A model generated the notes under the pieces. That model worked only from the letters and a program-made list of their open reading frames with translations, was not told where the DNA came from and did no database searches. Below are positions 1,128 through 27,249 of a stretch of 35,662 nt of DNA, one piece after another. How positions within the stretch are numbered: the stretch's first letter is position 1; every line of letters begins with the position of its first letter. The translations under genes were made by a program, and so were the position numbers. Source of the DNA: a virus (taxonomy: Duplodnaviria > Heunggongvirae > Uroviricota > Caudoviricetes); IMG/VR virus record IMGVR_UViG_2654587570_000002, positions 1 to 35,662 of that record; one strand, written 5' to 3'.

Positions 1128-1797
1128 AAAAAGACGGTTTAACCATCCATTAAAAATCGACGTGATTTTGTGCTTTCCGTATGAGGTGGCCAGCGTCATT
1201 TTTTAGTGAGAAATTCTGGTCAGGGGCGTTGGCTGAATGGTTATTTTATCGTGCCCATGCACAGGGAGGGGGCGGGTAAAATCTCTGGAGGTGATGCCTG
1301 TCAGGACCGCCGCCTGACCCTTCCTCACATCGCCGCAGGTTCGAAAACTTTTTTTGTGTCAGGTGTGCACGGAATTGATAGGTAAAACCTATATTAAAAA
1401 ATCACGGAAGCCGCGCCATTGCTGGATCAGTCAAAAATTCCACATCTCACGGCAGGCAAAAAAAGCGAATTTTGGGCCAGTTGAGGATAAAAAAGGGCTC
1501 ACTAGTTTTGCACATCCTGGTATCGGGGTCGTCAGCCTCCCGCCAGTAACCAGGTAACTAATCACGCTGGTGGGCATGATGCCGATGCCGGGATCTCGGT
1601 ATCGGTTTATCTGTGATCATCCACCAGCTTGATGACAGATAACAGGGAGTCATAACGATTAAAATTGTATATTTTTGCAGCAAACATTTTTAGCTACACG
1701 TTAAGCTATACGATTTTGAGTTTAAATTTTTTGTATTCAATTAAATCAAATGGTTATATGCACGTTTTGAATACTCTCGTGCCAAAAATCCCTTAAG

Positions 1798-1826
1798 AAC
1801 CAGCCTATTATGGCTGGTTTTTTTAT
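1798..1826 (+). terminator. rho-independent terminator-like hairpin followed by T7 run
   Basis: aaccagcc-tatta-tggctggtt followed by ttttttt; no convincing protein gene upstream on the + strand. Confidence 0.45.
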
Positions 1827-1992
1827 GATTGTTTTTTATGCGGAGAAATACCGGGGAATAATTGGGGTAAAACACCTTTAGGCTATTCACTTAGCCTACC
1901 ACCATCAAAATCTTTCCGAATGTATCCATCTCTTTTTTCTTATGCAGCTAAAACGAAGTCTTGATACTGTTTATTTACACAGATAAGAATAA

Positions 1993-2012
1993 TACTGTCT
2001 ACAAACGCAGTA
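1993..2012. promoter_or_regulatory. LexA (SOS) box-like palindrome upstream of the dinI-like remnant
   Basis: TACTGTCTACAAACGCAGTA fits TACTG-N10-CAGTA; sits 14 bp upstream of the ATG at 2026. Confidence 0.4.
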
Positions 2013-2025
2013 CAAAAGAAGTGTT

Positions 2026-2273
2026 ATGCGTATTGAGATCTCCATAACCAAAGACAAAATGACCAAATGCCAAATGGCGCTGTGGACGCGTTAAAGGAAG
2101 AGTTAACCCAACACATTGGCAAGCGTTATGACGATGTGGAGATGATCGTAAAAGCCACCAGCAACGATAGTTTTTCAGTTAGACATACTGCAGATAAAGA
2201 TTGAGCTAAAACTTTCGTTCAGGAAACTCTGAATGATACCTGAGAGTCTACTGAAGAGTTGTTTGTTCACTAG
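2026..2273 (+). pseudogene. dinI-family gene remnant (frameshifts and in-frame stops)
   Basis: ATG at 2026 gives [11 protein letters not shown] (DinI N-terminus is MRIEVTIAKTS as recalled), then similarity continues in another frame ([22 protein letters not shown]...SVRHTADKD) and after a stop in a third frame (AKTFVQETLNDT-ESTEELFV, compare DinI ...ILQETWESADDWFV). Confidence 0.6.
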
Positions 2274-2628: not shown

Positions 2629-4518
2629 ATGAAATCCGAGACGCTAACTGTCCAACAACTTTTTCAAGACCGCCGACAATACTGTGTTCCATTCTATCAA
2701 CGTGCCTATGTATGGACTCAGCAAGACCAATGGTCAGCTCTACTGGAGGATATCCTAGAGAAAGCACAATCCCGGCTCTCGGGTACAAAACCAACTCCCC
2801 ATTTCCTTGGTGCGGTTGTACTGGAACCTCAATCAAAAAAAGGATTATTAGGTGTAGATTCCATACATATTATTGATGGTCAGCAACGATTGACCACTCT
2901 TCAATATGTTCTGGCATCCATCCGATTAGCATTACGTGCTACGGATCTTTCCAGCTTAGAGGCTCTCATTTCGCCTTGCCTGAAAAACTCAAACGAAGAC
3001 ACAATGCGAAATAAAGAAGTAGAACGCTTCAAACTGTGGCCAACTTTTCGGGATCAAACTCATTTTATTCAAAGTTTTAATGTTGAAAATATTGACGATC
3101 TCCGGGACGTATTCTCTGATAGTTTCACGCAGCATGGTACGTTGCGTAAGCGTTTTAATCACCCGCCATCACTAGAAGCATTATGTTTTTTTACTAAAGC
3201 CTTTATAAAATGGATTAAAATAGAAAACCACTCACCACAAGAAAATGCTGTAGCTCTAATTGAGGCTGTCTTAACAGATCTGAAACTGGTAAGCATATTT
3301 CTCGAAGCTGAAGATGATGCCCAAATAATTTTTGAAACATTAAATGGGCGAGGGGCGGAACTTCATGCTACGGATCTTATTCGCAACTATATCTTTATGT
3401 GCGCAGAGCATGAAAATATTAATGCTATTGAATTATATGAAAATGAGTGGAAGAGCTTTGAAGATAAATACTGGTCGGAAAAACAACGCCGTGGACGTAT
3501 TAATAAACCACGCATGGAGTGGCTAGTACATGCGACATTGCAATCAGAAAGGCAGCGTGAAATTGATCTGTCTCGCCTTTACAATGAGTATCGTGATTAT
3601 GTAAGTAAGGACTTGTCTTCACAACGAGCAGATCTGCAAGTAAAGCGCCTCAAACAATATGCATTACAATATAAAGAATTGGTTGATGGTTTTGGCACAA
3701 CCCCCATCTCACACTTTGGATATCGCATCGCAGACTATGATGTGACGACACTTTATCCGCTTGCTTTGTTCATTTCGATAGCTAACATCGCTGATGATGA
3801 GAAAGCAGCCATGTATAATGATCTTGTCTCCTACGTAGTACGAAGAGCCGTATGTGGCCTGACGCCAAAGAATTACAACAATGTATTTATGAATGTATTG
3901 CGGCACTTGGCTAAAACGGAAATTTCCAGTGTTGAGTTACGTAATATCCTCAATAACTTAAATGGCGAAGCCTCACGTTGGCCTGGTGACTCAGAATTTC
4001 TCAACGCTTGCATCAATGCTCCACTTTATCCTGGCAGGCTCGACGCACCGAAAATGCGCTCAATGTTAACGGAACTTGAAAGAGAACTTTGTCGCCAAGT
4101 GAAGACCGAAAAGCCTGATGTTCCAAATCTTTCTAATCTCGATATCGATCATCTTATGCCCCAAAGTTGGTATTCCTGTTGGCCTCTCGAAAATGGTCGT
4201 ATGGTGACAAATTCAGATGCTACGGTATTGAACCAAATTGTTCTGTCTGGAACCGATCTTACCCCTGAACAGCTACTGGTAAGGAAACGGCAACAAGCGA
4301 TAGCTACTTTGGGAAATCTAACTTTGCTTAACCTTAGCGTAAACCGTTCTGTTCAGAATGCTGTATTTCTGAAAAAACGTGATGCTCTCATCGTCCACAC
4401 CAATCTACGACTGAACATTCCACTTATAGTTAAGGATAAATGGGATGAGGATGAAATCCTGGAGCGGGGTAAAAATTTGGGGGAAATTGCATTGAAAGTA
4501 TGGCCAAAACACGATTAA
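2629..4518 (+). CDS. GmrSD-like type IV restriction-type nuclease (N-terminal DUF262/ParB-like domain, C-terminal DUF1524 His-Me finger domain)
   Basis: N-terminal FYQRAYVW and IIDGQQRLTTLQ (DGQQR motif); C-terminal LDIDHLMPQSW (DxDH motif); roughly 40% GC against higher-GC tail genes; ORF track opens at 2569 but the ATG at 2629 (MKSETLTVQQLF) is the more typical family start. Confidence 0.8.
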   Translation: MKSETLTVQQLFQDRRQYCVPFYQRAYVWTQQDQWSALLEDILEKAQSRLSGTKPTPHFLGAVVLEPQSKKGLLGVDSIHIIDGQQRLTTLQYVLASIRLALRATDLSSLEALISPCLKNSNEDTMRNKEVERFKLWPTFRDQTHFIQSFNVENIDDLRDVFSDSFTQHGTLRKRFNHPPSLEALCFFTKAFIKWIKIENHSPQENAVALIEAVLTDLKLVSIFLEAEDDAQIIFETLNGRGAELHATDLIRNYIFMCAEHENINAIELYENEWKSFEDKYWSEKQRRGRINKPRMEWLVHATLQSERQREIDLSRLYNEYRDYVSKDLSSQRADLQVKRLKQYALQYKELVDGFGTTPISHFGYRIADYDVTTLYPLALFISIANIADDEKAAMYNDLVSYVVRRAVCGLTPKNYNNVFMNVLRHLAKTEISSVELRNILNNLNGEASRWPGDSEFLNACINAPLYPGRLDAPKMRSMLTELERELCRQVKTEKPDVPNLSNLDIDHLMPQSWYSCWPLENGRMVTNSDATVLNQIVLSGTDLTPEQLLVRKRQQAIATLGNLTLLNLSVNRSVQNAVFLKKRDALIVHTNLRLNIPLIVKDKWDEDEILERGKNLGEIALKVWPKHD

Positions 4519-4613: not shown

Positions 4614-4742
4614 CTAGGTCTCGGACTTTGTACCGCTTATCTTGTTTTCAAAAATCAGCTCGCATCCTGCACAGTTCAGCGCATTACGTTGTAGATCTGT
4701 GTTCTGGTCATTTGTTGATACGCGTACATAGCCAATAAGCAT
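4614..4742 (-). pseudogene. Gin/Pin/Hin-family serine invertase gene, N-terminal 41-codon remnant
   Basis: Minus-strand translation from ATG at 4742: MLIGYVRVSTNDQNTDLQRNALNCAGCELIFENKISGTKSET-stop; matches the invertase N-terminus (catalytic-Ser VRVST motif) as recalled, then similarity ends abruptly. Confidence 0.8.
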
Positions 4743-4768
4743 GGTAGATCCCCCTGACAAAAGCAGGA

Positions 4769-5182
4769 ATGATGCCATTTGCTCGTTATTTCTGCATTTT
4801 CATAAACGTTGGTTTGGGAGAAGCAGCAAAACGAGGGGTGGGGACAGGGGAAAATCAGATACCGGACATGACCTCTTTTGCCAGTGGTGATGGATGGATG
4901 AAATTACCCAACGGGAAAATCCTGCAATATGGTCGAGGTGAGGCTATGCCGAAATTATCGACGCAAACAATGAGGATTACATTTCCTATCCCTTTCCCTA
5001 AAAAAGCGGATATCGCCATTCTTACCCATTCTGGCGATGGCGGTGCGCCTTTTGGTGCAGGGCGTGGATTCGTTATGTCCGTAGAAGGCCCAACATTAAC
5101 CGGCTTTAATTCTGCTTACAGAACTGCATCAACCAGCGACAAGGTGTCAATGACTTACAGTTGGTGGGCTGTTGGTGAATAA
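4769..5182 (+). CDS. alternative tail-fibre C-terminal variable domain (silent cassette in present orientation)
   Basis: Shares VGLGE at the crossover site with the constant part and would be in frame with it after inversion; no independent start expected (the ATG at 4769 lies outside the crossover site). Confidence 0.6.
   Translation: MMPFARYFCIFINVGLGEAAKRGVGTGENQIPDMTSFASGDGWMKLPNGKILQYGRGEAMPKLSTQTMRITFPIPFPKKADIAILTHSGDGGAPFGAGRGFVMSVEGPTLTGFNSAYRTASTSDKVSMTYSWWAVGE
4797..4822. repeat. hix/gix-like crossover site (left end of invertible segment)
   Basis: TTTTCATAAACG-TT-GGTTTGGGAGAA; the last 14 bp are identical to the reverse complement of the site at 6717-6742. Confidence 0.65.
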
Positions 5183-5193
5183 TTTTATTCAGG

Positions 5194-5646
5194 ATGATTT
5201 ATATGAACGAATATGTTTATAGCGCAAGGCATAATGCTTTTTTCCCTGTGGATATGATTGATAAATATAAATCAGAGGGATGGGATTTATCAGATGCTAA
5301 GGAGGTGAGTCAAAATATTATCAGTGAATTTATGGCTGAACCGCCACAAGGAAAAATCCGTATTGCCGGAGGTGATGGGCTGCCCGCGTGGGCGGATATT
5401 CCTGCCCCTACGCATGAAGAACTTACTGAAATTACTGAATCAGAAAGACAGCTACTAATTAATCAGGCCAACGATTATATGAACAGTAAACAATGGCCTG
5501 GTAAAGCCGCTATTGGTCGTCTGAAAGGTGACGAACTGGCGCAATATAATTTGTGGCTGGATTATCTGGACGCACTGGAGCTGGTTGATACCTCCAGTGC
5601 TCCAGATATTGAATGGCCTACGCCTCCGGCAGTTCAGGCCAGATGA
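5194..5646 (+). CDS. tail fibre assembly protein (Tfa/U'-like), silent cassette
   Basis: C-terminal ...LVDTSSAPDIEWPTPP, the characteristic Tfa ending. Confidence 0.75.
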   Translation: MIYMNEYVYSARHNAFFPVDMIDKYKSEGWDLSDAKEVSQNIISEFMAEPPQGKIRIAGGDGLPAWADIPAPTHEELTEITESERQLLINQANDYMNSKQWPGKAAIGRLKGDELAQYNLWLDYLDALELVDTSSAPDIEWPTPPAVQAR

Positions 5647-6220
5647 CATCCGGCGCGGTGCTGGTATCTGTTGCCGTCACCGCGTCAGTGTAATCCAGCA
5701 CGGCGTTAAGTCGGGTGTTTTCTGCCTGCGTCAGCTTCCTCCCGGCCTGCAATTTCAGTTGAATCAGACTAATGGAAACCATTGCAGCATCAATCAGCGA
5801 CTGCCGCTGTGTTTCTGCCATGTCTACTGCTGCTCTATGCTGTGCCTCGGTATCCGTCACCCATTTCTCACCATCCCATTTATCGTATGGCGTTAACGGG
5901 GCGATAGTGGTTGTCTTTTCAGGGTAATCACCCGGAGCTGTGATTTCTTTTGATTCTCCTGTTTCGGTGCTATAGACGATTTCACCGCGATGGTCTGGCA
6001 CATATTCCCATGAGTTAAAATCTGCAGAACGGCAAATTGCATAACCAGCTTTATATGAGCCAGGAGCATCTAAACAGGAACATGCCGGGATACCGACACC
6101 CACAGCAAGATATTCGGTTGATGTGGAAATATATTCTCGTGTTTCACCATCATAATTATAAACGGTAATATCTCCCGCCTTTGTGGCGATGAGTTCCTTA
6201 TTTAATATAGCTTTATCCAT
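5618..6220 (-). CDS. tail fibre assembly protein (Tfa/U-like)
   Basis: Strong resemblance to lambda Tfa as recalled (EYVPDHRGEIVYSTETGE..., ...DTSTAPDVIWPELP). Confidence 0.8.
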   Translation of the reverse strand: MDKAILNKELIATKAGDITVYNYDGETREYISTSTEYLAVGVGIPACSCLDAPGSYKAGYAICRSADFNSWEYVPDHRGEIVYSTETGESKEITAPGDYPEKTTTIAPLTPYDKWDGEKWVTDTEAQHRAAVDMAETQRQSLIDAAMVSISLIQLKLQAGRKLTQAENTRLNAVLDYTDAVTATDTSTAPDVIWPELPEA

Positions 6221-26459: not shown

Positions 26460-27249
26460 TTATTTCCCCACCAGTTCACTTACCTCTTTCACTGTCTGGT
26501 TAAACCGATCTGACTCAAGCTCAACACCTAACGCCCGACGCCCCAGCTCCATTGCTGCTTTTATTGTGGAACCAGATCCCATAAAAAAATCAGCAACCAG
26601 ATCACCTGGTCGACTACTGGCATTGATTATTTGCCGGAGCATATCCGCCGGTTTCTCACACGGATGTTTACCCGGGTAGAACTGAACGGGTTTATGCGTC
26701 CAGACATCGGTATAAGGCACGGAGACTGATACGGAGAAATAGCGCCGGAGAGATTTAAACTCATCCAGCAATTCAGAATATTTGCGATTCAGTGAATCAT
26801 AAGATGCCACCAGCTGGTGGTGTGTCTGTTCCAGTTGTTGTTCCTGAAACTTCTCTGCCGCTATACGGGAAAACAGTGCCTGCAACTTCCGGTAGTCAGC
26901 CTCATTCGGCAACTGCCACTGACTGGCACCAAACCAGTGGGAAACCATGTTTTTCTTACCAGTGTTCACGCATCATGATCTCGATATCAGATGCCAGGCG
27001 ATGTCCACAGAACAGGTAAAGGCTTCCGGCAGGTTTCAGCACCCGCCAGAACTGAGCCAGACAGTGGTCCAGCCACTTAAGGTAATCTTCGTCCCCTTTC
27101 CACTGATTGTCCCAACCGTTGGGCTTCACTTTGAAGTACGGCGGATCGGTAACTATCAGGTCAATGGAATCATCAGGCAGGGACTGAATAAAATGCAGGC
27201 AATCAGCGTTGATTAAATCAACACTGTTTATTTTTACAGTATTTTTCAT
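26460..27249 (-). pseudogene. beta-class DNA methyltransferase (motif IV DPPY then motif I FxGxG), split into two ORFs by a frameshift
   Basis: ORF 26956-27249 has IDLIVTDPPYF; ORF 26460-26969 has DLVADFFMGSGSTIKAA; the two overlap by 14 nt in different frames. Confidence 0.65.

Follow-up and report, generated by a model that had tools for sequence, protein, structure and literature searches.

Phage dinI genes and the relic in the window

The closest described systems are phage-borne dinI genes, among them the LexA-regulated dinI homologues of the Gifsy prophages (PMC3121763; PMC8072944), which in Salmonella form a dinI-antirepressor-irsA operon (Lemire et al. 2011, PMC3121763). Literature cited in PMC3121763 places the contact with RecA in the C-terminal helix of DinI. 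In lambdoid coliphages, the DinI-like proteins are represented by gp21 of mEp460 (AFM76058), orf30 of cdtI, the dinI products of Stx1 and Stx2 phages and H0001 of VT1-Sakai; the genes are intact 82-codon open reading frames (ORFs) that have int/att and cargo genes, for instance cdtABC or nleC, as neighbours. A GmrSD-bearing prophage homologous to the one studied here has been called SfII-like (PMC4437046).

We compared these genes with the DNA at 2026-2273 (plus strand) of a 35,662-nucleotide stretch of viral DNA, which was analysed as a whole and is referred to here as the window. This DNA is the remnant of an 82-codon phage DinI-like gene, and very probably it represents a phage-borne dinI-like gene under LexA control that has died at the end of an SfII-like/lambdoid prophage of E. 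coli, with a history of decay and, apparently, of crossover. It resembles the lambdoid phage copies in nucleotide identity (83-85% over promoter and gene), in having two LexA boxes, in the layout of the promoter and in its site beside int/att and cargo. However, while the phage genes are intact, the window copy carries a 1-nt deletion, two nonsense codons and the substitution W79L. The parts of the relic are the following.

2026..2067, plus strand: dinI relic codons 1-14, in the original frame, opening with the ATG at 2026
2065..2067, plus strand: position of the 1-nt deletion that inactivates the gene, where an A4 run has become A3 (alignment with mEp460, cdtI and a Stx2 phage)
2067..2201, plus strand: dinI relic codons 15-59, in the -1 frame, with the Pfam DinI match
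2202..2204, plus strand: in-frame TGA at codon 60 (S60*), where all other haplotypes and the intact phage genes have TCA (Ser)
2205..2273, plus strand: dinI relic codons 61-82 and stop, corresponding to the DinI C-terminal helix (alignment of the intact relative to PDB 1GHH)

The initial annotation had recognised the DinI N-terminus from the ATG at 2026, and both the translation and the alignment to intact phage genes agreed with it. Left unrepaired, the original frame yields 22 residues from this ATG and then meets a TAA at 2092-2094. The sequence around the deletion reads ACC AAA TGC CA in the window and ACT/AGC AAA ATG CCA in the intact genes; the loss of one A from the A4 run shifted the frame after codon 14. 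It had also been proposed that the similarity hops frames twice. However, the segment AKTFVQETLNDT*ESTEELFVH, set off by the in-frame TGA at 2202-2204, is in frame with the preceding PNGAV...DKD segment; since the third segment is thus in the same frame as the second, the frame changes only once. The internal stop reported before ESTEELFVH, next to AKTFVQETLNDT, is indeed present, but it is one of two, the first being the TGA at 2202-2204 and the second a TGA at 2241-2243 (W73*; TGG in relatives). In addition, a TTG at 2259-2261 replaces the TGG of relatives (W79L), and the natural stop of the relic is the TAG at 2271-2273. Alignment of the DNA with mEp460, cdtI and a Stx2a phage accordingly gave four lesions in the window, namely the loss of the A, TCA>TGA, TGG>TGA and TGG>TTG.

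The membership of the remnant in the DinI family (Pfam PF06183, curated cut-off 24.2 bits) was supported by the middle 45-residue fragment alone, which scored 31.9 bits (E 1.7e-7), so that the alignment to DinI stands above chance, as the check proposed with the initial annotation had asked. When the window gene was repaired by one inserted base, the score rose to 37.8 bits, and the repaired allele of the less decayed CFT073 type scored 70.8 bits over the entire 63-position model. A tblastn search with the repaired CFT073-type protein matched 133 phage records, the best of which (phages 2H10, cdtI, PhiR63_1 and Lys8385Vzw) were 97.6% identical over all 82 residues without a gap, followed by mEp460 at 96.3% and many Stx1/Stx2 phages at 93-94%. 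The intact 82-aa lambdoid-phage homologues align end to end with the repaired reading; the repaired CFT073-type allele is 94-98% identical to the best lambdoid proteins, while the window's own repaired allele is more diverged. An intact relative could be aligned to E. coli DinI (PDB 1GHH; also 7YWA, the RecA-DinI complex), with residues 1-81 matching DinI 1-79 (E 7.9e-13, 51.5 bits). The chromosomal protein belongs to PF06183 like the relic, and both genes would be LexA-regulated, although at 51.5 bits the intact phage relative is only distantly related to it.

The intact gene encodes an 82-aa DinI homologue, two LexA boxes flank its sigma-70 promoter, and the product would have been made during the SOS response to modulate RecA filaments. 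The intact phage relative and E. coli DinI share the C-terminal motif TWESADDWFV, whereas the window reads T*ESTEELFV (W73*, A76T, D77E, W79L). The acidic-helix motif TWESAD(D/E)WF that is conserved in the DinI family, and kept in the intact relative and in 1GHH, is thus missing from the window copy, as is an uninterrupted ORF of about 80 codons, which is broken by the 1-nt deletion after codon 14 and by TGA at codons 60 and 73. With these lesions, the window copy cannot link the first strand to the remaining protein in one chain, nor can it encode the C-terminal helix. Its capacity to code for DinI is destroyed, and no working protein can come from it. Because the intact ORF and the C-terminal helix are both missing, the relic is best classified as a pseudogene of the DinI family, a member by descent. 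The decayed dinI gene of the initial annotation was thus upheld by the Pfam score, by the intact phage homologues and by RefSeq, where PGAP labels identical DNA "DinI-like family protein; frameshifted; internal stop" and four diverged alleles are flagged as frameshifted. A literature search on this relic found nothing specific. Since phage dinI genes under LexA control are well documented (PMC3121763, PMC8072944) and RefSeq flags this copy as a pseudogene, the relic is already known and of little importance in itself.

Promoter and LexA boxes

Upstream of the ATG at 2026, a consensus scan and a search for LexA sites placed the following signals.

1961..1990, plus strand: sigma-70-like promoter of the dinI relic (consensus scan), with -35 TTGATA at 1961-1966, an 18-nt spacer and -10 AAGAAT at 1985-1990
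1965..1984, no strand assigned: LexA box 1, TACTGTTTATTTACACAGAT, with a perfect CTGT-N8-ACAG core; it fills the promoter spacer and is conserved in intact phage copies
1993..2012, no strand assigned: LexA box 2, TACTGTCTACAAACGCAGTA, with CTGT-N8-GCAG and perfect TACTG/CAGTA ends; it starts 3 nt past the -10

The placement of box 1 in the spacer and of box 2 just after the -10 matches the usual layout of an SOS promoter, and the sequence shows both TACTG(TA)5CAGTA-type palindromes and their overlap or abutment with the promoter, as in LexA operators. The palindrome TACTG-N10-CAGTA noted earlier is present at 1993-2012, but it ends 13 nt, not 14 nt, before the ATG at 2026. Its reading as an SOS box held up, and it is strengthened by the second and better box at 1965-1984, which had been missed. 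The chromosomal dinI gene of E. coli has one LexA box; the window relic has two. The window contains five instances of TACTG-N10-CAG where 0.69 would be expected, a number not reached in any of 100 shuffles; the two neighbouring boxes account for three of these matches.

The boxes were scored by an approximate heterology index (HI), using a matrix rebuilt from 24 E. coli LexA sites rather than the published matrix. Since the rebuilt matrix runs lower than most published values, only relative values are meaningful. On this scale, which had been suggested as a check on the palindrome, the two boxes rank second and third among the 35,643 20-mers of the window (window median 36). Box 1 scored 7.3 in the window and 4.7-5.1 in intact phage copies, and box 2 scored 8.8 and 2.9, respectively; with the same rebuilt matrix, the genuine sites range from 0.6 to 9.4. 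Because their values fall within the genuine range yet are weaker than those of the intact phage copies, both boxes are credible LexA sites that look degraded relative to a working gene.

The relic promoter is homologous to the promoter annotated in phage mEp460, but both hexamers differ, the -35 of the intact phage genes being a perfect TTGACA (as in the annotated mEp460 promoter). Box 2 reads TACTGTATACAAACACAGTA in intact phages, and two substitutions weaken the window version. Likewise, the Shine-Dalgarno sequence is AAGAAG in the window and GAGGGA or AGGAGG in the intact phage genes. Compared with the lambdoid phages, the window has drifted away from consensus at both promoter hexamers, the Shine-Dalgarno sequence and box 2. 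LexA probably still binds the relic boxes, with a short non-coding transcript probably still switched on by DNA damage; at most, LexA binding and an SOS-inducible start of non-coding transcription would remain.

Att end, distribution and haplotypes

About 240 bp separate the start of the relic from a tRNA-Pro (proL) att core, and the region between them opens with a terminator.

1766..1783, plus strand: att-core-like remnant of the 3' end of tRNA-Pro (proL), aligning with the intact proL 3' end of CCUG 73778 and, in strain N12, with the end of the satellite
1795..1822, plus strand: strong terminator hairpin and T-run directly past the att core (11-pair stem; -16.8 kcal/mol, z -6.3)

This distance, and the fact that the intact copies also lie beside int/att and cargo, fit the earlier description of the gene as a moron at a prophage end. 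ARAGORN found no tRNA at the junction, where solely the 3'-end remnant of tRNA-Pro is present; in CCUG 73778, an intact tRNA-Pro is followed directly by the terminator hairpin and then by the dinI promoter. The remnant at 1766-1783 marks where a satellite element on the left meets the prophage end on the right. The left part (1-1826) is the end of a different element with a Nu1-like small terminase, and in strain N12 the same element additionally encodes a capsid protein, a head decoration protein, a primase and SSB, and it abuts the narP region. It is a capsid-forming satellite of the PICI type that apparently sits at proL in tandem with the prophage. Features of the prophage are a Mu-like baseplate and tail, a tail-fibre segment that can be inverted and a Q-like antiterminator. 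A search of the whole window found no known RNA family at gathering score, with chance-level sub-threshold matches in 1600-2700 and none in 600-1800, and a search for repeats around the relic found nothing meaningful.

In order to date the deletion, its distribution was examined. The window is DNA of E. coli. Among the best 25 matches listed for the segment 1850-2560, seven complete E. coli chromosomes are 100% identical to it, and identity is at least 99% in 118. Near matches to 1940-2290 were found in 251 of 5426 complete E. coli genomes (about 4.6%), of which 150 matched at 99% or more and 68 at 90-95%; UTI89 and S88 matched at 99.1% and ATCC 11775 at about 99%. Altogether 27 copies were typed (the window, six complete genomes, ten IMG/VR contigs and ten metagenome contigs), and the same 1-nt deletion was present in all 27. 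The six genomes, chosen across the identity range, are all flagged as frameshifted and include copies at two chromosomal sites, one downstream of ssrA and the other directly downstream of tRNA-Pro proL. In the copies downstream of ssrA, the 3' half of tRNA-Pro lies ahead of the conserved block, which suggests that the block derives from a proL-integrating phage. The ten IMG/VR contigs, located via the lineage-specific 5'-UTR, had the deletion in every case. The frameshifted string matched 11 metagenome contigs, ten of which could be read across the gene and carried the same alleles, the eleventh being cut at the 5' end.

A string of the repaired allele, CCAAAGACAAAATGACCAAAATGCC, had no match in metagenome contigs, species-representative genomes or IMG/VR, the species-representative genomes being uninformative here as the frameshifted string also had no match in them. 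Similarly, two repaired protein sequences were absent from about 15 billion proteins, while at least 1000 contigs carry the window's 45-aa ORF and 532 carry the 68-aa one of the CFT073 type. All inspected members of the intact 82-aa cluster had a lambdoid-type N-terminus (EICIAKEK or close variants) and not the EISIAKDK of this lineage. Since all 27 typed copies have the deletion and no repaired version was found, the deletion is real, fixed in the lineage and no sequencing artefact. It would be ancestral to all known copies carrying this promoter variant. The relic is a genuine, old and widespread pseudogene and, with the same deletion in every typed copy, a clean marker of one prophage-end lineage.

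On top of the shared deletion, three haplotypes were distinguished.

Haplotype A (window type), 17 copies: S60*, W73*, W79L
Haplotype B (CFT073 type), 6 copies: frameshift only, except for an 8-bp duplication in one genome and I3T in another
Haplotype C, 5 copies: W79*, H82P

These haplotype-specific lesions look like independent secondary hits on one common primary lesion, as neutral decay predicts, and the window haplotype would have gained S60*, W73*, W79L and other missense changes later than the deletion. Its private changes comprise 5 synonymous and 11 non-synonymous ones (2 of them nonsense), near the neutral site ratio of about 1:3.8; the private changes of the three intact alleles together comprise 8 synonymous and 4 non-synonymous ones. 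However, a comparison of the frameshifted alleles of CFT073 and CCUG 73778 gave 7 synonymous changes and 1 non-synonymous change (omega 0.04), which, taken alone, looks as if a frameshifted gene were under purifying selection. Between the CFT073 allele and intact cdtI there are only 3 synonymous and 2 non-synonymous changes over the whole gene, and the latter (C6S and E10D) both lie in the 5' part.

Conservation among 17 aligned copies changes along the locus. Every 30-column window over 1790-2090 showed 97-100% identity to the majority base, and identity fell to 90-96% over about 2090-2260 and to 67-86% past the stop. The promoter and both boxes are almost invariant, with one substitution (in haplotype C) outside the boxes and hexamers, and this could mean retention for function. 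However, the invariance is not specific to these signals, as the whole 1790-2090 block is conserved, including about 140 bp upstream of the promoter without a recognisable signal. The 3' haplotype is strictly linked to the cargo downstream: haplotype A goes with GmrSD, haplotype B with a DUF4236 protein or ynaM/ydfK, and haplotype C with a 315-aa hypothetical protein.

The simplest reading is that the 5' block with the deletion is a near-clonal att-proximal segment and that the 3' halves, together with the cargo, were imported by homologous recombination within dinI, in some cases from functional donors. With the 3' part imported from intact alleles, the low omega needs no selection on the frameshifted gene. 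The boundary between the modules would then lie inside the pseudogene, at about 2090, so that the 5' half of the relic and the att arm form one near-clonal block and the 3' half moves with the cargo. The initial annotation had placed the relic in an older layer beside a newer insertion. In support of this, the frameshift is common to all cargo variants and hence predates the diversification of the cargo; however, the 3' half of the pseudogene travels with GmrSD, and the boundary does not fall between relic and insertion. As suggested by the linkage pattern, cargo is apparently exchanged by homologous crossover within the relic. It would have no function of its own beyond serving as this stretch of homology, and it offers an example of a pseudogene as an anchor for swapping cargo, here GmrSD, the DUF4236 protein, ynaM/ydfK and the hypothetical protein.

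The downstream gmrSD gene and alternative readings

The cargo next to the relic in the window is the following gene.

2629..4518, plus strand: single-chain GmrSD type IV restriction enzyme, 629 aa (Pfam GmrSD_N and GmrSD_C; PADLOC mREase_IV, 1407.7 bits, full length; start as in the RefSeq gene)

The neighbour had been called GmrSD-like, and the Pfam domains and the PADLOC match both confirm this. In length and kind of genomic setting, as described in print, it matches the characterised enzymes UTI89_C2960 and Eco94GmrSD (PMC4437046). In the stretch between relic and gene, a consensus scan found no convincing intrinsic terminator (2273-2629): a hairpin at 2488-2532 is weak (-6.1 kcal/mol, z -0.66) and no better than shuffles, and one at 2329-2358 is stable but has no T-tract. 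The scan also placed a separate promoter-like site at 2530-2557, just upstream of gmrSD.

Three other explanations of the locus were weighed against a dead gene. The frameshift and stops might be put down to faulty sequencing or assembly of an intact gene, given that the frameshift sits in a short homopolymer run, but the deletion is identical in 27 of 27 independent copies and the stops are base substitutions common to the 17 copies of one haplotype; this explanation was rejected and deserves practically no credence. A protein might still be made, either by programmed -1 frameshifting with stop read-through or as an N-terminally truncated DinI from the ATG at 2067. The universal conservation of the frameshift and the low omega between some frameshifted alleles point in this direction, as does the CFT073 haplotype, in which the 68 codons from Met15 form an intact ORF that spans the entire Pfam domain. 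However, the overlap zone (2037-2092) contains no slippery heptamer of the X XXY YYZ type, the A-runs of only 3-4 nt are too short for known cases of transcriptional slippage, and no Shine-Dalgarno sequence precedes the ATG at 2067. Judged by the alignment to 1GHH, the 45-aa ORF of the window would also be without both the first beta-strand and the C-terminal helix, and the window allele has two further in-frame TGA codons and W79L in that helix, the three haplotypes being disrupted in different ways. Given the missing heptamer, the short A-runs and the extra haplotype-specific stops, programmed frameshifting or recoding was rejected, and continued synthesis of a protein by any of these routes is very unlikely for the allele of the window.

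The remaining alternative is that the SOS promoter has been co-opted, with a LexA-controlled transcript running through the dead relic into the cargo (GmrSD here), which would make the cargo damage-inducible or tightly repressed. The first downstream gene lies on the strand of the relic in all four cargo arrangements, but four of four is weak statistics. A transcript would meet no convincing intrinsic terminator before 2629; however, Rho-dependent termination and polarity are expected on long untranslated RNA, and about 560 nt of such RNA would have to be crossed. The near invariance of the promoter and both boxes in all copies also fits, yet the entire 300-bp block at 1790-2090 is about 100% identical, and the -35, -10, Shine-Dalgarno sequence and box 2 are all off consensus relative to the intact phages. 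The Gifsy prophages offer a precedent in that their dinI promoter drives genes located after it (PMC3121763), and GmrSD is toxic when over-expressed, its native expression being suspected to be tightly regulated (PMC4437046), but the separate promoter-like site at 2530-2557 lies directly ahead of gmrSD in the window. Overall, we regard co-option as improbable, though less so than the other two alternatives, and prefer the reading of a dead gene that serves as a site of crossover. If the SOS promoter did read into gmrSD, a type IV restriction enzyme would be tied to the DNA-damage response: LexA would hold the toxic GmrSD off and release it upon DNA damage that signals prophage induction or phage attack.

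An operon of the Gifsy type was also considered, as the Salmonella dinI-antirepressor-irsA operon (PMC3121763) has the same order of terminator, LexA boxes and dinI as the window. It was rejected because 2273-2568 contains no ORF of at least 25 aa (ATG, GTG or TTG start) on either strand, and thus no antirepressor-sized ORF follows the relic. The window differs from the Gifsy operon in two further respects: the relic lies at the att/tail-fibre end and not 1.3 kb downstream of replication genes, and dinI itself is dead.

Probable recombination inside the dinI relic, and copies of the relic at ssrA

The degraded phage dinI-like gene (dinI relic, 2026-2273, plus strand) occurs as three 3' haplotypes, among them the window type and the CFT073 type. 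We found these two in one fragment from Escherichia albertii (P0004, 58 aa), which stops at position 72 and consists of a window-type middle (12 residues) followed by a CFT073-type distal part, GLSVTRTADKDS. This joining of the two types in a recombinant haplotype supports a crossover inside the relic. Relic copies downstream of ssrA are preceded by the 3' half of tRNA-Pro (5851-5960 in locus L001 and 1261-1360 in locus L007), so the ssrA islands contain a module that probably came from a phage integrating at proL. One to three variable genes, such as that of a GIY-YIG protein in ATCC 11775, are inserted between this module and ssrA.

The satellite-like element and the proL junction

The first 1,826 nucleotides of the window are the end of a satellite-like element and lie outside the prophage. 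The features used here are as follows.

13-330: fragment of a Nu1-like small terminase gene, in the satellite-like element
1766-1783: remnant of the tRNA-Pro (proL) 3' end, where the element and the prophage meet

Since the version of this element in strain N12 also encodes a major capsid protein, a head decoration protein, a primase and SSB, the element resembles a capsid-forming PICI. Because the proL remnant lies at the meeting point, the element and the prophage appear to occupy proL as a tandem pair; among the matches listed, no complete genome spanned this junction. The stretch of about 1.1 kb at the end of the satellite (690-1760) has no ORF of at least 90 aa, its counterpart in RefSeq strain N12 carries no annotation, an Rfam search of 600-1800 (E up to 1) returned no match, and no notable repeats were found in the region. 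Candidate roles for this stretch are a cos site, an att arm or a regulatory RNA.

Features flanking gmrSD and a split methylase gene

2329-2358: stable hairpin, GUAGCACGUC...GACGUGCCUAC (-12.7 kcal/mol, z -3.6), in the spacer separating the dinI relic from gmrSD
4614-4778, minus strand: Hin/Pin-type serine invertase, 54-aa N-terminal stub (RefSeq: "recombinase family protein, incomplete")
26460-27249, minus strand: N6/N4 DNA methylase gene, broken into ORFs 26956-27249 and 26460-26969, which overlap

The hairpin was ruled out as a canonical intrinsic terminator because it lacks a T-tract. On the other side of gmrSD, the invertase stub is flanked by that gene and by tail-fibre and tail-fibre-assembly genes of opposite orientation (4769-6220); this arrangement is an invertible tail-fibre switch whose recombinase has been lost.

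The ORF at 26956-27249 matches the N-terminal part of Pfam PF01555, and the one at 26460-26969 its C-terminal part. The methylase gene appears to be a second gene with a frameshift, as would fit a prophage in decay. Overlapping approximately codons 3-10 of the methylase gene, CACTGTTTATTTTTACAGTA (27222-27241) is the top LexA-box-like 20-mer of the entire window, with an approximate heterology index of 5.0 (lower is better; matrix rebuilt from 24 E. coli LexA sites), and could be either a true SOS operator or a coincidence within AT-rich coding sequence.
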